A stretch of 64,000 nucleotides of DNA. It comes from an uncultured Chloroflexia bacterium. GTDB taxonomy: Bacteria > Chloroflexota > Chloroflexia > QHBQ01 > JADMIH01. Location of the stretch: the NCBI GenBank assembly GCA_963837315.1, contig CAWINE010000017.1:342549-406548 (forward strand). The letters are read 5' to 3'. Of this stretch, positions 1 through 52,777 are shown piece after piece. The notes beneath the pieces were generated by a model. The model was given only the letters and a program-made list of their open reading frames with translations. It had not been told where the DNA came from and made no database searches. Position 1 is the first letter of the stretch. Each line of letters starts with the position of its first letter. The position numbers and the translations under genes were made by a program.

Positions 1-1272
1 GCGGCTCTGGTCGAGGTTCAGGTCGAAACCGAGTTGGGTCTGGTCGTTGTTGAAGCCGACAAGCGACATATTGAGGTCGTTCTCGAATGTATCGCTCAGA
101 TAATCGCCGCTCAGGGCATCCGCGCCCTTCAGAACCACCCAGGCGGCCAGACCGTTCTTGTAAGCGCGCAGCTCTTCCTCGATGCTGCAATTGGACTGTT
201 GTGATACCACGCCGCTGGTGAAGTCATATGCATGGGTGGCTTCGTGGGCGAGCACGCTGGCAAGCGCTTCGGGAGGCTCGTTGCGGTACTGCTCAGGAAT
301 AACGATGAGGTAGGGTTGCCTCCTGTTGCCTGTAGTGATGAAAGCGCCCCCTACGTCCTGGTCCTGTATCTGAGTGAACTGTACCACGACCTTGTTCTGG
401 ATTATCACGGCGGGAACCCACCTGAATTGCTGGGTGTGCCCCAATTCCTTTATGGCCGGCAACAGGCCGGCGTCCACCAGGTTCGCGAGGCGCGGGTCGT
501 CGCTCAGGTCGGTGTCGGCAGCGGGCAGGGGGGCCGGAAGCTCTATCCGGGCGAGCGGGTCTAAGGCGCTCGAGCGGGCGTATTCCACGCCGAGGAGGCC
601 AAGCTGGACGTTATCGGGCGGATTCAATTCGGGGTGCCATTCGAAGCGGTTGCGCTCGAAATACTGGACAGTATATTGCTGCCCGTCGGCATCGTTGGTC
701 TCGGTGAACTCTTCCGAGATCGGGTAGCCGAATACTGCCAGCCCGCCGTTCTGCTGCCAGTAAGCCAGGAAGCCATTGGCGAGGTTATGGCCGGTCTGCG
801 GGAAGAAGAACGAAGTAGCGGTGTCGCTGCCCGAGGGTTGGGGGTCGAAGGACTGGGATCCCGTCACTGAGAGGCCGCGCTGCTCAGCAAGTGTAACGCC
901 CAGCCGGGTGAGGAGCACCTTCTGCTGGCCGGTGCCGGGGATCTCGGGGTGGTACTCCAGGCGAGCGCGCTCGAGGTATTGCACGGCGAGGCCGTCCTCA
1001 AGGGTCGGCTCGGTGATAGGCAGGCCCAGCACGGCGGTGCCACCATGGCTGTTCCAGTAGTCGAGGAAAGCGCCCCGCAGGAAATGGGCAGTTTGCGAGA
1101 AATATCTCTGCTTGCCCTGGCTTACTTCGGATGGTGCGGGAACTTCTGATTGGATGGAGTATTGCTTGCTGCCTACTGCTTCGGACGTGGTGGACGCGTG
1201 CGCCGCCTCCGGGCTTGGAGCCCAGGCGGCGAGTGTGCTCACTATAACTAACAATAGGAGCAGGACGCGCAT
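1..1272 (-). CDS. Secreted protein, 3' end cut by window edge: signal peptide, two tandem LGFP-like ~65-aa repeats, distal HExxH-containing region
   Basis: Absent from the ORF track because it runs off the window. My translation from ATG (complement of 1270-1272) stays open for 424 codons: MRVLLLLLVIVSTLAAWAPS... Repeats are FLDYWNSHGGTAVLGLPITEP..VQYLERARLEYHPE and FLAYWQQNGGLAVFGYPISEE..VQYFERNRFEWHPE, followed by VLAHEATHAYDF. Confidence 0.75.
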   Translation of the reverse strand, partial: MRVLLLLLVIVSTLAAWAPSPEAAHASTTSEAVGSKQYSIQSEVPAPSEVSQGKQRYFSQTAHFLRGAFLDYWNSHGGTAVLGLPITEPTLEDGLAVQYLERARLEYHPEIPGTGQQKVLLTRLGVTLAEQRGLSVTGSQSFDPQPSGSDTATSFFFPQTGHNLANGFLAYWQQNGGLAVFGYPISEEFTETNDADGQQYTVQYFERNRFEWHPELNPPDNVQLGLLGVEYARSSALDPLARIELPAPLPAADTDLSDDPRLANLVDAGLLPAIKELGHTQQFRWVPAVIIQNKVVVQFTQIQDQDVGGAFITTGNRRQPYLIVIPEQYRNEPPEALASVLAHEATHAYDFTSGVVSQQSNCSIEEELRAYKNGLAAWVVLKGADALSGDYLSDTFENDLNMSLVGFNNDQTQLGFDLNLDQSR

Positions 1273-34539: not shown

Positions 34540-34682
34540 AGAGTTAGGCGCCTCCTATGGACATACTTATATGCACCCATATTCTAATGCATAAGCTTGA
34601 CAGAAAAGATAGTTTGAGGGTTTGTGAATCTGCACCTGAGTGCTTGACCATGAGGCCGATGGCAAGCGTGATGTAGGGGCAG

Positions 34683-34763
34683 ACCCACGTGTCTGCCCTG
34701 GTCGGGTAGAGATTCTGCGCCCCACGAGGGCAGACACGTGGGTCTGCCCCTACCCCCTTTCTT
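34683..34763. repeat. Second copy of the CACGTG palindromic element
   Basis: gtaggggcagacccacgtgtctgccct - 27 nt - agggcagacacgtgggtctgcccctac. Confidence 0.9.
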
Positions 34764-34903
34764 CTGTATCCAACTCTGAACTGTTTCGGCCCGTGGTACA
34801 ATTGTCGCAGGCGTATTCGCTCGCAAATGACATGCAGGGCGACCTTCATAGCGGACCGTCTATCGTTGAACACAGCGCACATTTCGTTTGGAAAGAGGCA
34901 AAA

Positions 34904-36982
34904 ATGAGGCAGAACAAGAGGCCAACGCGGTTGTTGCGGCAGAGCATCATGGCGATGCTGACGATGTTTGTAATGCTGATCCCGGCGACGGGATATATGC
35001 CGTTTGGTAGCCGCGCAGCGCTGGCAGCAGGCTACACAGTCACCATTACGGCCAACCAGTTCCAGAATCCGGCGGGCAGTTCAGGGGGGCCGCTCGGCAT
35101 AGCGGTAGGCGATAGTGTGGAATGGCTGAACCAGAGCCCCGACTCGCAGGACATCGACATTCTAAGCGGACCTGTGTTGAACGTGTCTCCCGAGATTCAC
35201 CCTGGCAAATCCTGGAGCATGACCTTCACCGTTGCGGGCAAATACCACTACTCCAGCGAGTTCCACCCCGAGATGTCAGCCGACATTATCGTGGGCGGCT
35301 CAACGAGCGCCAGCCCAGTGGACCGGGTCGTGCAGACCTTCCCTGAGACCGGCAGGAGCGTGCGCGGCCTCTTCCTCGACTACTGGAATACGCATGGAGG
35401 GCTGGCGCAGCAAGGCTTCCCGATTTCGGAGGAGACGGAAGAGAAGAGCGATACCGATGGCAAGTTCTACACTGCGCAATACTTCGAGCGAGCAGTGTTC
35501 GAGTACCACCCCGAAAACCAGCCGCCGAACGACGTGCTCCTTTCGTTGCTTGGCGTTTTCCGCTACAAGGAGAAGTACCCCCACGGCGCCGCGAGCCAGC
35601 AGCCCAATACCTCGCCCGGCTCGGTCCTCTTTCAGCAAACCGGACACAGGCTGGGCGGAAAGTTCCTCGACTACTGGAATACGCATGGAGGGCTGGCGCA
35701 GCAAGGCTACCCGATCTCCGACGAGTTTATGGAGCAGAGTGACCTTAACGGCAAGACATACAGAGTGCAATACTTCGAGCGAGCAGTGTTCGAGTACCAC
35801 CCCGAGAACCAACCGCCGTACGACGTGCTGCTGTCGCAGCTAGGCAAGTTCCGTTATGACGAGGTGGCCCAAGCGCCGAAACCGGACGCGAACGGCATAC
35901 AGGTAATAGGCATATCGCAGGGACCGCAGCATTACCCGCTGCTGGCGGGGCCGCACGCCGCGCCCGGCCTCAACGTGTGGGTCTACCAGAACGACCCCCA
36001 GCCCGTTATCGGCTGGATGAGCGACCTGGGTGTGAAATATGCAATGCACCAGCTATCGTGGGGCGACCTGGAGCCTCAGAAGGGCGTATACAAGTGGGAA
36101 ATACTGGATAACGCGGTTGATGCCCTCTCGAAGGCGGGAGTGCGTGTTATCTTGAACCCCGTACACACTCCCGGATGGCTTCAGGCCCCCGACGGAGGGA
36201 TGACCGACACAGGCGAGCTCCAGCGGTTCATGACGCTGGTGGCGCAGCGATACAAAGGCAAAGTGGTCGGCTACCAGATATGGAACGAGCCGAACCTGGC
36301 CCGCGAGGTGGGCAAGTACGTCGTTTCGGCCCGCTATGCTGAAATTCTCAAAGCGGGCTACCTGGGAGTGAAAGCGGGCGACCCGAATGCCATAGTGATC
36401 ACGGCGGCCCTCACTCCCACAGGGGTGAATAACCCCGAGCTAGCAATAAACGACGTGACATTCCTGCAAGAGCTTTACGCGTACAACGGCGGCGAGCTGA
36501 AGGGCTATTTCGACGTGCTTGGGGGCCACCCCGGCTCTAACGCCAACCCGCCCAACACCTTCTATCCCACCAACCCCGGCCCCGGCCCCGGCTGGAACAA
36601 CGACCCCAGCTTCTACTTCAGGCGCATCGAGCAGTTGCGGCAGGTGATGGTAGAGAACGGCGACGCGCAGAAGCAGATGTGGCTCACTGAATTCGGCTGG
36701 GCGAGCACACCCAGCCCCGCGCCCGGCTTCGAATACGCCGCGCAGACCAGCGAGCAGGCGCAGGCCCAGTATATCGGCCAGGCCTTCCGCATGGGCCGCG
36801 ACCAGTACCCCTGGATGGGTGCCATGATCCTCTTCCAGCTAAATATGGCCCTCCCCAACGTCTCCACCGACCCCACCGACGAGCGCATCGCCTGGGGCAT
36901 CCTCCGCCGAGACGGCACCGAGCGCCCATCCTATACCGCCGTGAAGCAGTATGCGGCGGAATGGAATGCCGCGAATAAATAA
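34904..36982 (+). CDS. Secreted multidomain protein: cupredoxin-like domain, two LGFP-like repeats, clan GH-A (GH5/GH39-like) glycoside hydrolase domain
   Basis: GAAAGAGG RBS then ATG 34904. Signal/TM segment MAMLTMFVMLIPATG. GDSVEWLNQS...GKYHYSSEFHPEMSADIIVG. Repeats FLDYWNTHGGLAQQG(F/Y)PIS...QYFERAVFEYHPENQPP x2. YQIWNEPN and WLTEFGW catalytic-type motifs. Confidence 0.8.
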   Translation: MRQNKRPTRLLRQSIMAMLTMFVMLIPATGYMPFGSRAALAAGYTVTITANQFQNPAGSSGGPLGIAVGDSVEWLNQSPDSQDIDILSGPVLNVSPEIHPGKSWSMTFTVAGKYHYSSEFHPEMSADIIVGGSTSASPVDRVVQTFPETGRSVRGLFLDYWNTHGGLAQQGFPISEETEEKSDTDGKFYTAQYFERAVFEYHPENQPPNDVLLSLLGVFRYKEKYPHGAASQQPNTSPGSVLFQQTGHRLGGKFLDYWNTHGGLAQQGYPISDEFMEQSDLNGKTYRVQYFERAVFEYHPENQPPYDVLLSQLGKFRYDEVAQAPKPDANGIQVIGISQGPQHYPLLAGPHAAPGLNVWVYQNDPQPVIGWMSDLGVKYAMHQLSWGDLEPQKGVYKWEILDNAVDALSKAGVRVILNPVHTPGWLQAPDGGMTDTGELQRFMTLVAQRYKGKVVGYQIWNEPNLAREVGKYVVSARYAEILKAGYLGVKAGDPNAIVITAALTPTGVNNPELAINDVTFLQELYAYNGGELKGYFDVLGGHPGSNANPPNTFYPTNPGPGPGWNNDPSFYFRRIEQLRQVMVENGDAQKQMWLTEFGWASTPSPAPGFEYAAQTSEQAQAQYIGQAFRMGRDQYPWMGAMILFQLNMALPNVSTDPTDERIAWGILRRDGTERPSYTAVKQYAAEWNAANK

Positions 36983-37616: not shown

Positions 37617-39495
37617 CTACCTGACAGCGTCGCCTTTGAGCAGGCTCGTGCCGTCGGCTCCCAGCACTTCGATGTTATCGGCGGGGCCGGAAAGAGGGAT
37701 TGTGGCGGGGGTATCGGGGTAGGCGTCGAAGTGGTAACTGGTTGTGCCTGTAGAGGGGTTGGTCACCAGCAGGGTCGCGCCTTCGGTGCGCCTGGTGGGC
37801 AGGACATGAGCGATGTTGCCATCAACCGATACGGTGCCCCATGGGCTTGCCACGCTGACGCCTCCTGTGTGGGCGACGGGCTGCCATTTCTCAGTCCAGC
37901 CGAGAGCGCCGTTCGGTGGGAAGAGCGCATAGTCCCAAAATGTGGGTGTGATGCCGCCCCAAAGCTCGGCGTAAGACGAATCGCCGTCTGTGTAGACTGA
38001 GGGGTTGAGGTCGGGACCCCAGCCGAACATCTTGAGGCCCGGCATATCTTTGTTGGAGAAGGTCTTGACCAGCCCCTCGTCGGCATCGGGATTGTATACC
38101 GCCGCGAAAGCGCCTCGACTTGGGCGCAGGCGGAGCGAAGCCGCCCAGCCAGCCGCCCCATGTGGAGCTATCCGACAGCAGGCGTCCGCTGTAGTTGGGC
38201 CAACTGATAACGCTATGCGCCGCCGGCAGGCCCGTATCACTGGTGCTGTGGATTATCATTTGCGTGGTGGGGATGATGAACTGCATCCTGGTCGAGACAT
38301 GGTTGGTGCCGCCGGGAGCAACCATCGCGTTGGTCCAGAGTTGGCCGCGCTGCTGGGCTGCCGTGCGGTTCTCTATTCGCGCCGATACCGTGTAGGCATC
38401 CTCTTCGGGGCTGAGGGTGATCGTGCCTGTCACCTTCATGCCGGTCAGCCTGTCGGTGGCCGAAACTGTCACGGTGGCCCCACCATCGCCGTTGCGGGTG
38501 GTAGTGGCGTCCCAGGGGAGATATTCCATCAGGCCGTGCTCTTCGGTTGGGGCGGCCCATTCCATGCCGCCAACTCCCAGCCACCAGCCTTTGTCCGAGA
38601 AGGGTGCCGGCTTGACCACGGGGTTGCGGTATAGCTCGTCGTGGCCTGTGGGCTTGTAGATGGCTTCGTAGAGCCGCCCACCAAGTTGCGGCAGCACGCT
38701 CAGCTTGATGTAACGGTTCTCAAGCACGATAAGGCGGTAGGTGTGCACAGTAATCGGCCCCATCTTGTTGAGGTCGAGATGCGGGTATGGAGCGACCGAG
38801 TCGTTCGTGGGAGTGTAGAAACCCTCTTCGTAGCCGTACGTGGGCAGGCTCACGCTGGTCTCGGTTATTTGCACGCGCTGGGCGAGTAAATCGCGCCCCA
38901 GCAGGCCAAGCTGCACCTCGTAAGGCGTGCCCGCCTGGTCGGGGTGTAGCTCGAAGCGGTTACGCTGGAAATATTGCACGGTCACACCGTTCTCCACCAA
39001 CGGCTCGGAGATTGGGTACCCGAAGAGGGCCAGCCCGCCGTTTTGCTGCCAGTAGTCGAGGAACTTGCCTGCGAGCGTGTGCTGGGTCTCAGGGAAATAG
39101 AGGCGCGTGGGCGTGGTGGAGGCGTCTGCGACGGGCGAGGGGGCGAAGTTGCGCCCCGCAGTCTCGATGCTGCCCAGGAGGCCAAGCTGCACTTCGTAGC
39201 CGGTGCCCGCGTTTTCGGGGTGGTATTCGATACGGGCGCGCTCCAGGTATTGCACCATGAAACCGCCCTCGGTCTCCGGGTCGGTAAGAGGGTAGCCGAG
39301 GAGTGGCACGCCGCCGTGGCTGTCGAAGAAAGAGATAAATTCTGGGGCGAGCGTCTTGCCCGTCTCAGGATAGTTTCGCCCCTGTGCCTGGGCCGTTACG
39401 ATGTGCGTTCCGGCGGCGGAAAAGAATAGACCCAGCGCAAGAACTGCCAGGCTAATGCCCGCGATCTTCTTATTTGTTCTCGTTGCCATAATCAA
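37617..39495 (-). pseudogene. Secreted protein: two LGFP-like repeats plus DUF5107/mutarotase-like domain, one frameshift
   Basis: ORFs 37891-39495 and 37617-38240 join near 38105-38160 (...STWGGWLGGF / GAFAAVYNPDADEGLVKTF...). Signal peptide. FISFFDSHGGVPLLGYPLT..VQYLERARIEYHPE and FLDYWQQNGGLALFGYPIS..VQYFQRNRFELHPD. Confidence 0.7.
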
Positions 39496-43166: not shown

Positions 43167-43757
43167 TCATGACTCCCGAAGAGCAGTGCTCTTTGGGTCT
43201 GTCTCGGGCTCCTGGGGAGTGGGCAGGGTGGTGTCCATGGGAGGGACCGTGGTGGCCTCCGGCAGAGCAGGCTCGCTTGTCTTGCCGAACAAGAGGCCGA
43301 CCAGAATAAGTATCACACCCACGGTGATGGCGCTGTCGGCTGTGTTAAATACGGGGAATGTATAGACCGTATTATTGAGCGTCAGTTGCGGCCTGTATAC
43401 TTCGATGAAATCTCGCACGTAGCCAAGGCTGATGCGGTCCGCGAAGTTGCCGAGCGCGCCGCCTATTACCAGCCCCGCGGCCAGCACCGACAGCGAAGAA
43501 GGGTTGCCCAACCGCACGAATGCGACGACTATACCCGTTATCACCACCACCGACACGATGCTGAGGATACCTGTGGCGTCGGAGAAGATGCCGAATGCCG
43601 CACCCGTGTTCTGAGTATAGCGGAGGCGTATATAACCCTCAATTATGGGGCTAGTCTGTCCAAGCTCCAGGCTGCTTGAAATCCAGAGCTTGGTAAGCTG
43701 GTCCAGTACCAGCACCACCAGCGCCGCCAGGGACATCAGGATGAAACTTCGTTTCAT
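43167..43757 (-). CDS. lspA: Lipoprotein signal peptidase II
   Basis: NTGAAFG, FPVFNTADSAITVG, four TM segments. Confidence 0.9.
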   Translation of the reverse strand: MKRSFILMSLAALVVLVLDQLTKLWISSSLELGQTSPIIEGYIRLRYTQNTGAAFGIFSDATGILSIVSVVVITGIVVAFVRLGNPSSLSVLAAGLVIGGALGNFADRISLGYVRDFIEVYRPQLTLNNTVYTFPVFNTADSAITVGVILILVGLLFGKTSEPALPEATTVPPMDTTLPTPQEPETDPKSTALRES

Positions 43758-43825
43758 AATTACGAATTACGAATTACGAATTACGAATTTACGAATTGCC
43801 AACCTTTCATTCGTAATTCGTAATT
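43758..43825. repeat. TTACGAA-heptamer hairpin (same unit as 1347-1419)
   Basis: aattacgaattacgaattacgaattacgaatttacgaatt - gccaacctttc - attcgtaattcgtaatt. Confidence 0.9.
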
Positions 43826-44343: not shown

Positions 44344-46134
44344 CTACTTGCAGGGAGATATATCGAGGCCTAGCAAGCCAAGAAGCACTTCGGCGTTGGT
44401 GCCCGTATATTCAGGGTGAAGCTCGAGGCGGGCACGCTCTGTGTATTGCACCGTATAGGTCTTGCCGTCTGCGGGGTTCTGCTCGAGCACAGGCTCGGAG
44501 ATTGGATAGCCGAACTGTGTGAGGCCGCCGTTCTGCTGCCAGTACTGGAAGAAGGTCCCGCTCAGCGTATGCTCGACCTGTGGGAAATAGAGCGTGTCCG
44601 CCCCCGGTGCGGGATCGGTGGCGGGCGGGAAGAAGCGCCCCCCTGCCGCCTGTACTCCCAGCAGGCCGAGCAGCACGTTGTTGGGAGGCTGGTTCTCCGG
44701 ATGCAATTCGAAGCGGTTGCGCTCGAAATACTGCACCGTGTATCGCTTGCCGTCCGTGGGGCTTTTCTCTGTGAATTGTTCGGTGAGGGGGTAGCCGAAC
44801 ACGGGTAACCCGCCGTTCTGCTGCCAGTATTCGAGGAATGCTCCGCTCAGGCTGTGCCCTGTCTGCGAGAAATATAATCTGTCCGTGGTGGACGTGAAGG
44901 GCGTGATCGCGTTGCAGGCTACCGGTTTGGGTGTAGGGGTTGAGGTCGGCGTGGGGGGCTTCGGCGTGGCAGTGGCGGGTATGCTGGTTGCCGTGGACGG
45001 CGGGCCGGGCGTGGTCGTGCCGGGCCGGTAGCCCTGAGGGGTGCCTGTGGCGGGGAGGGGCGTTGGAATACCGGCGATCGTATCCCAGATGTGCGGGTCC
45101 TCCTGCCCTAGCCGCCAGAGGGCGAAGCCGGCCATCTTATCACCTGTGACCAGGCTCAGCTTGGCTTCGAAGCTTTGCTCGTTCTCGTACCAAACTTCCC
45201 TTAGCTGCCCGTTGGTCGTGTAGCGCGTCCAGGGAGCCTGGGCCGAGGCGTCATAGCCGCTTTGCGAGCCGGGTTGGTGCGCGATGGCGTCGGCTTCCGC
45301 CCACGTGCGTGGGTCGGCCATGCCAAGCGATTTGCCGTCCGGCCCCTCAGGCCAATCGTAGCCATACACGCCCATACCCCATATTACCTGACGTGCGGGC
45401 ATCTTGGAGAGCGCATAAGTAGCTGTGTCGCGCAGCTTGTTCAACGGTGCTATGGGGCCAGGGTTGCCGCCCGGGTAGGAGTAATCGTAGGCCATCACCA
45501 TAACGTAGTCCACGACCTTGTACAGGGCCGAATAATCATAAACTGCCGCCCAGCCCGTGCTTATGTCGCGGGTCTTTGCGGCCACCACAGCCGTCACCAG
45601 CTTGCCTTCCGCGTGGAGACGGTCGTAGACGCGGCTCATGAAGATGGTGAGTCTCGTTTTGTCGGCGGGGTTGAGAGCTTCAAAGTCTATCGTGATACCG
45701 TCGTAGCCGTTGGCCGTCACCAGAGAATCAATAGAGTTGACGATGGCGCTTATTTTGTTGTCGTCGTTGATGATAGCCGAGAAGGTATCGTACTCGGCTG
45801 AGCTGTTCTTGAGCATAGGCAGATTCTTCGCGCCTGCGCTCCTGATTATCTGGGTGACGTCAGCTCGGTCGCTGCCTGTGACCTGGCCGTTCGCGTTGAG
45901 GTTAAAGTACCAGGGCGACACGTAATTGAGCTTGCTCACATTGGCCTGCAGCGACGCGAGCGAGTTGGCGTTATAAGTCACATAGAAGCCCCACCGGATA
46001 GCCGCCGCGCCTGTGGAGGACAGGGGAGCAGCCCCCGCGCTATAAGACGCGAGGCTGAGGCCGCCAATCGCTAACGTTGTGGCCGTTGTAATCAGAATGA
46101 GCAGTGAATGGACCCGTAGGCTGCGTAGGCTCAT
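44344..46134 (-). CDS. Secreted GH18 chitinase-like glycoside hydrolase with Pro/Thr linker and two C-terminal LGFP-like repeats
   Basis: Signal peptide. YDGITIDFEAL (DxxDxDxE-type GH18 motif), MAYDYS. C-terminal FLEYWQQNGGLPVFGYPLT..VQYFERNRFELHPE and FFQYWQQNGGLTQFGYPIS..VQYTERARLELHPE. Confidence 0.85.
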   Translation of the reverse strand: MSLRSLRVHSLLILITTATTLAIGGLSLASYSAGAAPLSSTGAAAIRWGFYVTYNANSLASLQANVSKLNYVSPWYFNLNANGQVTGSDRADVTQIIRSAGAKNLPMLKNSSAEYDTFSAIINDDNKISAIVNSIDSLVTANGYDGITIDFEALNPADKTRLTIFMSRVYDRLHAEGKLVTAVVAAKTRDISTGWAAVYDYSALYKVVDYVMVMAYDYSYPGGNPGPIAPLNKLRDTATYALSKMPARQVIWGMGVYGYDWPEGPDGKSLGMADPRTWAEADAIAHQPGSQSGYDASAQAPWTRYTTNGQLREVWYENEQSFEAKLSLVTGDKMAGFALWRLGQEDPHIWDTIAGIPTPLPATGTPQGYRPGTTTPGPPSTATSIPATATPKPPTPTSTPTPKPVACNAITPFTSTTDRLYFSQTGHSLSGAFLEYWQQNGGLPVFGYPLTEQFTEKSPTDGKRYTVQYFERNRFELHPENQPPNNVLLGLLGVQAAGGRFFPPATDPAPGADTLYFPQVEHTLSGTFFQYWQQNGGLTQFGYPISEPVLEQNPADGKTYTVQYTERARLELHPEYTGTNAEVLLGLLGLDISPCK

Positions 46135-49315: not shown

Positions 49316-50978
49316 GTGAAGAAAGTATTTAGCAGGGTTATGATACTTGGCGTCTTTCTCTTGACAATTGTTGGCGGTCCAGGGTTTGCATTCGCGCAAT
49401 CACAAACGGACACGCGCTTTTTCTCCGTGACACAACAATCTGTTTCAGGTCGCTTCCTTGAATATTGGAATGAAAACGGCGGGCTATTGCAGCAAGGCTA
49501 TCCGATCTCTCCTGTGCTGGAAGATCAATCAGCTATAGATGGCAAGACATATACTGTGCAGTATTTCGAGCGGGCCGTCTTCGAGATGCACCCGGAAAAC
49601 CCTCGGCCATACGACGTTGAGCTTGCGCTGCTCGGTGTGCTGGCATACCGGCAGAAATATCCCGATGGCGCGCCCAACCAGGTTCCTAATACAGACCCGG
49701 GATCTGTCTCGTATCCTGCAACGGGCAAGCGGTTGGGCGGCTCTTTCCTGGTCTACTTCAACCAGCATGGCGGCGTAGCCCAGCAAGGCCTGCCTATCTC
49801 CGACGAGTTCCAGGAGAAAAGCAGCCTCGACGGCAAGGTGCGCACCGTCCAGTATTTTGAGCGCGCAGTCTTCGAGTGGAATCCATCCGAACCAGCCTCC
49901 CTACAACGTTCTGCTGAGCCAGCTCGGCACATTCGCTTACAAAGCAAGGCAAACGCCTGCGCCTGCGCCTGTTCCCCCTCTGCCCACTACGATTGTCCCG
50001 CCGCCGGTAGGGGGCAAGGACCAGTACGCGCCCATCGGCAATGACCGGTACCTTGTATGGTCAGAGGGCGAATTGAAGTCCAGCGGCGGAGGCATAGTAA
50101 ACACCTTCGATATACGCGCCCTCGATCTGCGCACAAATAACGTGATCACCGTTACAGATGCACAGGGCGACCAGGGAGACCAGGTCCTCGACGGCAACAT
50201 GGTCGCATGGGGAAGCTATGACACCAGTTGTGCGGGCTGCCAATCTTCTGCATCGGGCGTTTACGCGAAGAACCTTGCGACAGGCCAGGAGTATACGGTA
50301 GCCACAGGCTTTGTGCCTCAAGGAACCATCGGCATATCCGGCAGAAAAGTCGCATGGCTGGAAGGTGGCGCGGCAGGTCAGCAGCTAAAGGTGAAGGACC
50401 TCGACAGCAATGAGATTACGCTGGTGCGAGAGGTCGCCACTGAAGAACCATATCTCACAAACGTACAGATGAGCGGCAACAATCTAATCTGGAGCGAGAT
50501 CGCCTATAACAATACCAAAGGGGACAGCAAGGTGTCGTACATAAAGGCCTACGACCTCAAAACAGGCCAAACACACGACGCGTATTCCTACGTGCTCGAC
50601 CCGAAGGGCTCCCTGCCCAACGTCGCATTGAGCGGCGACAGACTTGTTGTGCAAGACAGCGAGGGCAATGTCTTTGTCAAAGACCTGCCGAGTAACGATT
50701 CGTTCGAGCTTGCTTACAAAGGACTGATGAACAATCTTGTAGTTCAGGGCGATCTCATCCTGTTCAGCAGCAGCCCCGCCCATGCGGATATCAATGGCAT
50801 CAATCTGAAAAGGGCCAACACTGTAGTGCCAATAATCAACTCGGTTCCGGGCAGCTTCAGCCAGTACGAGTTCACGGTGGCCGGCGGCAGACTGGTGTAC
50901 GTGGACGCCAATGGCAACCCCTCAAGGCAAGATCGCCCCCGGTTAGTAGTGCGCGAGCTTCCGGACGCGCTAAAGTAG
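49316..50978 (+). pseudogene. Secreted protein: two LGFP-like repeats plus beta-propeller-like domain, 1-nt insertion; paralog of 51107-52777
   Basis: GTG 49316 (VKKVFSRVMILGVFLL...). ORFs 49043-50044 and 49857-50978. The paralog reads gagtggaatccgtccaaccagccg, whereas this gene has gagtggaatccatccGaaccagcct, with the extra G at ~49889. Confidence 0.8.
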
Positions 50979-51106: not shown

Positions 51107-52777
51107 GTGAAGAAGATATTCAGCAGGGTTATGATACTTGGCGTCCTTCTCTCGACAATTGTTGGCGGTCCAGGGTTTACATTTGCGCAATCACAAACGG
51201 GCACGCGCTATTTCCCTGAGACACAGCAATCTATCTCGGGCCGCTTTCTTGAATATTGGACCCAGAATGGCGGGCTGATGCAGCAGGGGTACCCGATCTC
51301 GCCTGAGATGCAGGAGCTATACCCTACAGACGGCAAAACCTACACGGTGCAATACTTCGAACGCTCCATCTTTGAGATGCACCCCGAGAACCAGAGACCT
51401 TACGATGTGCTTCTCGGGCTACTTGGCGTACTGGCATATCGCCAGAACTACCCGCACGGCGCTCCCAACCAGATTCCGAACAACGACCCTGGCTCAGTTC
51501 TATTCAAAGAGACGGGCAAGCGGGTAGGCGGCTCCTTCCTGGCTTACTTCAACGCTCATGGCGGCATAATGCAGCAAGGTCTCCCAATTTCGGACGAGTT
51601 TCAGGAGACGAGCGCTCTCGATGGCACCATGCACACGGTCCAGTACTTCGAGCGAGCCGTGTTCGAGTGGAATCCGTCCAACCAGCCGCCTTATAACGTC
51701 CTTCTGAGCCAGCTTGGCACATTCGCCTACAAGGCGAAATATAGCGCACCGCCGCAGGAGCAACCTATACTCGAGCCGGTGCTCCCGGCGCCCTCCAATT
51801 CCAGAAAGGCCCAGGTTGGCCCGCAAGCATCGAGCGACTATCTCGTCTGGTACGAAGGATTGCAGACAGGCCCGGCCGACAGGGGAAACTACACAGACCT
51901 CGATATCATGGCGCTCGATTTGCACACGAATAAGCCTGTAACCGTCACAACTGCCTCTCAGAACCAGACAGAGGCCAGCATAGATGGCTCGCTCGTGGCC
52001 TGGCGCGACGAGAGCATCGGTTGTGCTGAGTGCTCTCCGCCGGGATTGTACGCGAAAGACCTGGCCACAGGCATGGACTACGATATTTCCAGGGCGACGG
52101 GGAGCTCGTTTCCTCAGAACCCTGTGGTCGCGGGTAGAACCGTCGCATGGCTGGAAGTGAGCGACAACGCGCAGATTATCAAAGCCAAGAACGTGGACAC
52201 AGGCAACACGACAGAGGTGAAAGATTTGATTGGCAACACGTCTCAAATCACCGGCCTGGCGGGACAAGGACGGTTTCTGGTCTGGTGCGAGGTTGACTAC
52301 GATCATTCGCAGACTTCCACTCCGGTGCCAGGCTATCCATACACTCTTGAAGCCTACGACCTGGCAACAGGCAACCAATATCAGGAGCTCACAGCCTATC
52401 TAAGCAGCGGCCCGGACTTCGCGCTCCCTTCCTATTCGCTGAGCGGCACCCGGCTTGCTGTGAGCATGAAATCCAAAAACTCATTCTTGATTAACCTCTC
52501 TACAGGCACAAGCATTGAGCTACCATATACCGGCACTATGCAAAACCTCACCCTTTACGGTGATAAGCTCCTCTTCAGCACAAGCATCGATGCTTCGGAC
52601 CTTTATGGCATCGATCTCTCGTCCCCCGACCTGAAAGCTGTTCCACTGCTCCAGACCCCTCCGAACACCCCCCCGCAGGATGCCCCGAGATACCAGGCCG
52701 CCGTGGTAGGGGATTGGCTCGTCTGGGACAATGCAAAAGACCCGCAGTCCAGGCTAAGCCATAAGAAGCTGGATTAA
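51107..52777 (+). CDS. Secreted protein: two LGFP-like repeats plus beta-propeller-like domain (intact paralog)
   Basis: Signal peptide MKKIFSRVMILGVLLSTIVGGPGFTFA. FLEYWTQNGGLMQQGYPIS..VQYFERSIFEMHPE and FLAYFNAHGGIMQQGLPIS..VQYFERAVFEWNP. Then recurrent ..LVW/..VAW blade-like segments. Confidence 0.8.
   Translation: MKKIFSRVMILGVLLSTIVGGPGFTFAQSQTGTRYFPETQQSISGRFLEYWTQNGGLMQQGYPISPEMQELYPTDGKTYTVQYFERSIFEMHPENQRPYDVLLGLLGVLAYRQNYPHGAPNQIPNNDPGSVLFKETGKRVGGSFLAYFNAHGGIMQQGLPISDEFQETSALDGTMHTVQYFERAVFEWNPSNQPPYNVLLSQLGTFAYKAKYSAPPQEQPILEPVLPAPSNSRKAQVGPQASSDYLVWYEGLQTGPADRGNYTDLDIMALDLHTNKPVTVTTASQNQTEASIDGSLVAWRDESIGCAECSPPGLYAKDLATGMDYDISRATGSSFPQNPVVAGRTVAWLEVSDNAQIIKAKNVDTGNTTEVKDLIGNTSQITGLAGQGRFLVWCEVDYDHSQTSTPVPGYPYTLEAYDLATGNQYQELTAYLSSGPDFALPSYSLSGTRLAVSMKSKNSFLINLSTGTSIELPYTGTMQNLTLYGDKLLFSTSIDASDLYGIDLSSPDLKAVPLLQTPPNTPPQDAPRYQAAVVGDWLVWDNAKDPQSRLSHKKLD

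Follow-up and report, generated by a model that had tools for sequence, protein, structure and literature searches.

Paired LGFP-derived repeats on diverse exported proteins of Chloroflexia and their possible role in envelope tethering

Six genes for exported proteins, spread over a 64,000-nucleotide stretch of DNA from an uncultured Chloroflexia bacterium (contig CAWINE010000017.1; the whole stretch is called the window below), carry the same two-copy repeat module, which raises the question of what this module is and what it does on such different proteins. Chloroflexota are abundant in soil; they show no outer-membrane markers, and the composition of their layered envelopes is not known (PMC13319060), nor did we find a paper explaining how exoproteins are kept at this envelope. 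Our analysis indicates that the module is very probably derived from the LGFP repeat. The full proposal, namely that this LGFP-derived pair tethers exported proteins to the cell envelope, is one towards which we lean slightly.

A profile hidden Markov model (HMM) of the repeat was built from 12 units and searched against every stop-to-stop segment in all six frames of the window. The search returned these 12 units as six pairs in six genes (g1 to g6), each unit with an E-value between 1e-27 and 1e-42, and no further copy in the six-frame translation of the window. The modules are located as follows:

574..1110, minus strand: module of g1, units 883-1110 and 574-810 (unit HMM E 1.7e-28 and 6e-40)
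35333..35860, plus strand: module of g2, the focal region, units 35333-35569 and 35624-35860 (unit HMM E 4e-40 and 9e-42)
38884..39378, minus strand: module of g3, units 39160-39378 and 38884-39102 (unit HMM E 2e-27 and 1e-32)
44359..44877, minus strand: module of g4, units 44644-44877 and 44359-44592 (unit HMM E 2e-40 and 1.5e-36)
49415..49943, plus strand: module of g5, units 49415-49654 and 49706-49943 (unit HMM; the second unit is split over two frames)
51203..51733, plus strand: module of g6, units 51203-51445 and 51497-51733 (unit HMM E 2e-40 and 3e-38)

An earlier note on the window had described a two-copy module common to six genes, and the six pairs bear this out, with its coordinates agreeing with the HMM units to within about 50 nt. 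Judged by the unit alignment its consensus is accurate, and the placement was found as described: N-terminal in g1, g3, g5 and g6, internal in g2 and C-terminal in g4. The repeat period of about 90 aa has to be corrected to 97 aa from start to start. The note had also called the six proteins unrelated; all six do share the module, but they represent five unrelated architectures, since g5 is a tandem paralogue of g6. Between different genes, module matches show 34-79% identity (BLASTP, E 1e-20 to 1e-103), far above chance, and the parts outside the modules have no mutual similarity at E<0.01, except for g5 and g6.

Recent duplication or gene conversion as the cause of this sharing was rejected for most pairs, because the modules of unrelated genes are 34-66% identical. 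For the modules of g5 and g6, which are 78.5% identical, either process is possible.

Several sequence comparisons connect the module to the LGFP family (Pfam PF08310). Matches to Pfam LGFP at E<=0.01 were obtained for 29 of 85 homologues, and homologues with four units exceed the gathering score of 22 bits, with scores of 28.6-56.7 bits (P0139: 56.7 bits, E 3e-15; P0192: 49.6 bits). LGFP was the only Pfam family found for the repeat, which mapped to no domain with a different known role; NCBIfam gave no match to the module. When 50,697 phage genomes were searched with the module by tblastn, a single gene was recovered, the endolysin of Jace (Gordonia/Rhodococcus phage), which contains three canonical LGFP repeats (Pfam E 5.7e-26). 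In hhalign comparisons, the unit profile matched the Jace endolysin with a probability of 94.6% (E 6.9e-8) and an alignment of 10 diverse actinophage LysA LGFP regions with 94.9% (E 4.6e-8) and 93.2%. The overlap covers 54-59 columns, corresponding to unit positions of about 1-64, from the N-terminal 'ETGH' to 'HPEN'. Within the module motif (Q/F/L)-G-(Y/F/L)-P, the G and P are invariant in 11 of 11 aligned units; the position of the LGFP Phe is aromatic in nine of them and the Leu position is mostly occupied by Q or F. A few homologues carry the JGI label 'uncharacterized protein with LGFP repeats'; now and then, then, automated annotation has noticed the relationship. A literature search combining LGFP and Chloroflexi returned nothing relevant, and we found no paper on the LGFP kinship of the Chloroflexia module.

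A search of the unit-alignment profile against PDB sequences had the p53 tetramerisation domain as its sole result (E 0.42), and this match was discarded as spurious.

Structure prediction with AlphaFold2 (AF2) gave confident models, both for the g2 pair, which is predicted as one rigid body (predicted local distance difference test, pLDDT, 97.2; predicted template modelling score 0.91), and for the single unit (pLDDT 91). Secondary structure assigned by DSSP to the AF2 models comprises helices at 12-20 and 23-27 and strands at 35-38, 45-51, 55-58 and 68-70, and the predicted models have the LGFP-like fold of an N-terminal helix followed by a three- or four-stranded antiparallel sheet. Compared with 350,542 PDB chains, the single-unit model had as its top three matches the two chains of Corynebacterium glutamicum mycoloyltransferase A (MytA) and the isolated LGFP domain of this protein (6SX4, 6SWZ; probability 0.98-1.00, template modelling (TM) score 0.57, root-mean-square deviation 3.0-3.5 Å, 72 columns), and the fourth match reached a probability of only 0.07. 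Searching by sequence with the LGFP region of Jace confirmed both entries as LGFP. According to PMC11299179, the MytA structure is the sole experimental LGFP structure. The pair model, for its part, matched Gordonia phage lysins in BFVD with a probability of at least 0.99. The resemblance to the LGFP repeat of actinobacteria, which the earlier note had remarked on without being able to confirm homology, is thus supported by the Pfam scores of homologues, the hhalign comparisons, the MytA fold match and the phage lysins.

The models also indicate how the two units might be joined. Only the C-terminal helix of the unit loses confidence when modelled alone, dropping from a pLDDT of about 97 in the pair to 59 in the single-unit model, from which we infer that the added helix forms the interface between the units. 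As MytA was matched by the single-unit model only, the predicted arrangement of the units seems to be unlike that of the MytA stalk.

The unit itself is about 80 aa long and consists of an LGFP core and a conserved C-terminal helix (VLLGLLG), followed by a linker, which results in the 97-aa period and a pair of about 175 aa. Its core is made up of a helix with FLxYW, a GGLxxxG(Y/F)P turn and four beta-strands with QYFERAxFExHPE. Most units have a six-residue hairpin insertion, DGKxYT, which is absent from g3 (a short subtype) and from the first unit of g1. Pairing is almost fixed: two units were counted in 135 of 145 cluster representatives (four in 8, three in 2; median spacing 97 aa) and in 87 of 92 open reading frames (ORFs) at 80 genome loci. 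Units in the same position of different proteins are 70.2% identical, compared with 66.5% for units in different positions, and some signatures are tied to position, for example SQLG in the second unit. Since a first unit is slightly closer to the first units of other proteins than to second units, the pair, and not the single unit, appears to be the element that is inherited and shuffled between genes.

The comparison with known systems shows both the kinship and how far the module has departed from it. With the LGFP repeats of MytA/PS1 it shares the order of motifs (aromatic helix, GG..G-aromatic-P turn, acidic residue, and Q.FE..hydrophobic..P strands), the helix with a four-stranded sheet and the location on exported proteins. 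Canonical LGFP repeats are about 54 aa long, have a helix and a three- or four-stranded sheet and form uninterrupted arrays of three to five, whereas the module has units of about 80 aa at a 97-aa period, an extra C-terminal helix and usually the six-residue hairpin insertion; in place of the L-G-F-P Leu it mostly has Q, F or L. MytA carries five repeats on a stalk, in contrast to the two units of the module, which are predicted to form one compact domain. LysA proteins of Gordonia, Rhodococcus and Nocardia phages are similar in that an accessory module accompanies a catalytic domain acting outside the cytoplasm, and they supplied both the sole phage match in tblastn (Jace) and the top fold matches in BFVD. 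In these lysins the LGFP repeats are located where a wall-binding domain would sit; however, they are three canonical repeats of about 54 aa, C-terminal and restricted to peptidoglycan hydrolases, while the Chloroflexia module is found with more than 100 kinds of cargo.

A functional analogy is provided by the SLH triplets of Bacillota and other monoderms, which are likewise small, repeated, fixed in copy number and placed behind the signal peptide or at the C-terminus of unrelated exoproteins. SLH domains bind a secondary cell-wall polymer. They have no sequence or fold relationship to the module, and no scan gave a Pfam SLH match. SLH, LysM, PG_binding, SH3b and dockerin were all absent from the Pfam scans of the window proteins and 85 homologues, and none of them was among the 25 most frequent of the 115 families co-occurring in 99 representatives.

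The module is widespread. Among 1.84 billion cluster representatives (50% identity clusters), an exhaustive HMMER search found 7,890 proteins at E<=1e-3, of which 2,974 reach E<=1e-30, and a word-indexed search gave more than 5,000 module matches. The named carriers are almost all Chloroflexia or Chloroflexota metagenome-assembled genomes (MAGs), together with Thermomicrobiaceae and Nitrolancea; one match is named Chitinophagaceae. The GTDB genome set yielded at least 589 loci, and the best 80 of them all belong to Chloroflexia or Chloroflexota MAGs, with single MAGs holding six to seven loci within these best 80 alone. A second module gene lies within 3 kb at 12 of the 80 loci, and the clustering of module genes in the window is therefore not unusual. 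Megablast detected no DNA near-identical to the window in the 80 related genome loci, so the species of the window lies outside this set.

All six window proteins have N-termini resembling Sec signal peptides (a charged stretch followed by a hydrophobic one) according to a crude rule of hydrophobicity and charge, and the same rule found signal-peptide-like N-termini in 122 of 142 representatives. Five of the window proteins end within the window, and the translation of none of them shows a C-terminal membrane anchor. Of the 145 representatives, 103 have the module at the N-terminus, 22 at the C-terminus and 13 at an internal position, and 7 consist of the module alone. The frequent position directly behind the signal peptide could be explained by a ligand-free module for export, folding or stability, perhaps an intramolecular chaperone or a domain conferring competence for secretion, and such a module could also be better conserved than its cargo, as is the case in g5 and g6. 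We regard this explanation as improbable, since it sits poorly with the C-terminal, internal and stand-alone copies, with the invariant residues W18, Q49, R53, E57 and H59, which suggest a binding site, and with the LGFP relatives, which are binding domains.

In the Pfam scan, which covered 99 of the 145 representatives, 115 different families co-occur with the module at E<=1e-5. The partners include Kelch, PQQ, NHL and SGL propellers, cupredoxin, CopC and lamin-tail domains and esterases, and further an L,D-transpeptidase (NCBI name), a protein with PF01520 (N-acetylmuramoyl-L-alanine amidase) and peptidase S8. Together with the varied positions, this range of partners confirms the portability that the earlier note had proposed. 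The partners also bear on a second explanation, in which the pair is a carbohydrate-binding module that aims enzymes at environmental or matrix polysaccharides (chitin, plant or microbial glycans, or the cell's own extracellular polysaccharide or sheath) and not at the wall proper. The GH18, clan GH-A and DUF5107 partners in the window fit this idea, as do a GH99 match (PF16317) and a JGI-named PslG among the homologues, and the LGFP-type repeats of MytA bind glycan wall components (PMC11299179). Most partners, however, are not carbohydrate-active (HExxH peptidase, cupredoxin, CopC, propellers, esterases, peptidase S8, L,D-transpeptidase), and more than 100 partner families are easier to reconcile with one address for all than with one substrate for all. 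Targeting of external glycans is thus rather unlikely in our view, though less so than a ligand-free export module.

The reading we prefer is envelope tethering. It would involve a lineage-specific, derived LGFP repeat whose two units together fold as a single compact domain (about 175 aa), placed behind a Sec signal peptide on unrelated exported proteins such as glycoside hydrolases, peptidases, cupredoxins, beta-propellers and peptidoglycan-acting enzymes. This domain would bind non-covalently to an envelope glycopolymer, either peptidoglycan or an associated polysaccharide layer, and the binding would keep exoenzymes at the surface of Chloroflexia cells, which have no outer membrane; given an envelope without outer-membrane markers, exported enzymes would diffuse off unless tethered. 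The tethering function is suggested by the wall binding of MytA LGFP in Corynebacterium and by the presence of LGFP in actinophage lysins, and we judge it about even, at best marginally favoured. As summarised in PMC11299179, pull-downs showed the LGFP domains of MytA to bind peptidoglycan-arabinogalactan, and semi-conserved aromatics line the binding sites. The module retains invariant W, Q, R, E and H (W18, Q49, R53, E57 and H59) on its helix and strands, all polar or aromatic residues of a surface type, as a common ligand would lead one to expect, and between g5 and g6 it is much better conserved than the cargo. More tentatively, and with doubts that outweigh our confidence, the module might serve as a general surface-display address of soil Chloroflexia and Thermomicrobiales that recognises a lineage-specific polymer of the multilayered envelope.

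The ligand could also be a protein. A lattice-like protein layer can occur in Chloroflexota (PMC13319060), and a dockerin-like pair might bind a receptor or scaffold protein of an S-layer or outer layer and thereby assemble exoenzymes on a protein surface. Dockerins have the same architecture, a small internally duplicated module on many unrelated secreted enzymes per genome. Yet the module has no Pfam similarity to dockerin or to any family except LGFP, it is homologous to a glycan-binding wall repeat, and no candidate receptor was identified, which makes docking to a protein an outside chance. All three alternatives fit the diversity of the cargo, the LGFP ancestry and the variable position of the module less well than an envelope anchor does.

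Several observations weigh against an LGFP-derived wall anchor. On the side of ancestry, g2 scores 21.4-21.9 bits against Pfam LGFP, just under the gathering score, g1 scores 19.4 bits, and g3, g4 and g6 have no Pfam LGFP match at E<=1. Because homologues with four units do pass, the shortfall of the two-unit proteins looks like an effect of copy number and divergence. The Foldseek E-values of the 6SX4 and 6SWZ matches are no better than 0.04-0.17, and the two-unit model found no match in the PDB with Foldseek (best E 0.39, TM score 0.14). On the side of function, Chloroflexia have, to our knowledge, no arabinogalactan-mycolate wall; the ligand of the module must therefore differ from that of MytA and cannot be arabinogalactan-mycolate. 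The added helix and the obligate pairing could accompany a changed function, and several partners are glycoside hydrolases, which would also fit a role in substrate binding.

The homology class is already known, and the likely role is the one expected for LGFP. What appears to be new is the two-unit, helix-extended architecture, the very large expansion in Chloroflexia and the fact that current family models miss the module. LGFP-type repeats thus occur not only in Actinomycetota and their phages but also, as a structurally more elaborate version, in a second phylum without an outer membrane. Most carriers are unmatched by Pfam and NCBIfam in the module region, and a model of its own within the LGFP clan would put thousands of annotations right. 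If the module is a wall anchor, it would be a ready predictor of the surface proteome, and its fusion to green fluorescent protein (GFP) could serve as a probe for the recognised wall polymer. Should it prove to be a general address, it would offer a handle on the envelope polymer and define the surface proteome of a major soil lineage with few cultured members.

The carrier genes in the window combine the module with the following parts:

1..1272, minus strand, C-terminus beyond the window edge: g1, with a signal-peptide-like N-terminus, the module and a HEATH (HExxH) region (from the translation)
34904..36982, plus strand: g2, with a signal-peptide-like N-terminus, a weak cupredoxin at about 35094-35293, the module and a clan GH-A TIM-barrel hydrolase at 35861-36982
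37617..39495, minus strand: g3, with a signal peptide, the module and DUF5107 at about 38239-38790 (Pfam E 1.2e-20)
44344..46134, minus strand: g4, with a signal peptide, GH18 at about 45103-45987 (Glyco_hydro_18 E 8e-30), a Pro/Thr-rich linker and the module
49316..50978, plus strand: g5, with a signal peptide, the module and an uncharacterised C-terminal domain; tandem paralogue of g6
51107..52777, plus strand: g6, with a signal peptide, the module and an uncharacterised C-terminal domain that may be a beta-propeller

Of the partner labels in the earlier note, GH18, DUF5107 and GH-A hold, but the cupredoxin, the HExxH region and the propeller have sub-threshold matches only. The barrel of g2 passes the Pfam thresholds for both Glyco_hydro_42 (32.8 bits) and Cellulase (27.7 bits). 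Its cupredoxin is sub-threshold for Cupredoxin_1 and matches amicyanin weakly, and the combination of cupredoxin and module is also present in homologues. For the HExxH region of g1, Pfam gave only sub-threshold matches, to Peptidase_M91, SprT-like and DUF6782. The C-terminal domains of g5 and g6 (49950-50978 and 51740-52777, about 340 aa each) match no Pfam family; the one sign of a propeller is a sub-threshold match to the NCBIfam Methanosarcina-type repeat beta_prop_Msarc, which reaches 29.4 bits in g6 at a cut-off of 85.

Two of the genes are interrupted. The frame of g3 breaks at about 38100-38150, within or after DUF5107, leaving two overlapping ORFs in different frames, and g5 has a +1 frameshift inside its second unit, where an extra G near 49889 (TCC-G-AAC, no homopolymer) becomes apparent by comparison with 'NPSNQPP' in g6. 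Both genes are either pseudogenes or affected by assembly errors. After correction of the frame, g5 and g6 are 51% identical over 543 aa, with 78.5% in the module and 35% in the remainder, a difference suggesting that the module is under stronger constraint or has undergone gene conversion.

The ORF of g2 continues upstream of its start for 88 further codons, to a GTG at 34640 (34640-34903). The ATG at 34904 is the more plausible start, since the signal-peptide-like sequence comes after it.

Apart from the module, the window contains two intergenic palindromes at 1346-1419 and 43757-43825, one between g1 and an amidohydrolase gene and the other at the start of lspA, in which tandem heptamers (AATTACG)n face (CGTAATT)n. 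The 16-mer TTACGAATTACGAATT has 11 occurrences with at most two mismatches, compared with 0.02 expected, and the heptamer palindromes could be a hairpin of the repetitive extragenic palindrome (REP)-like kind or a terminator element.

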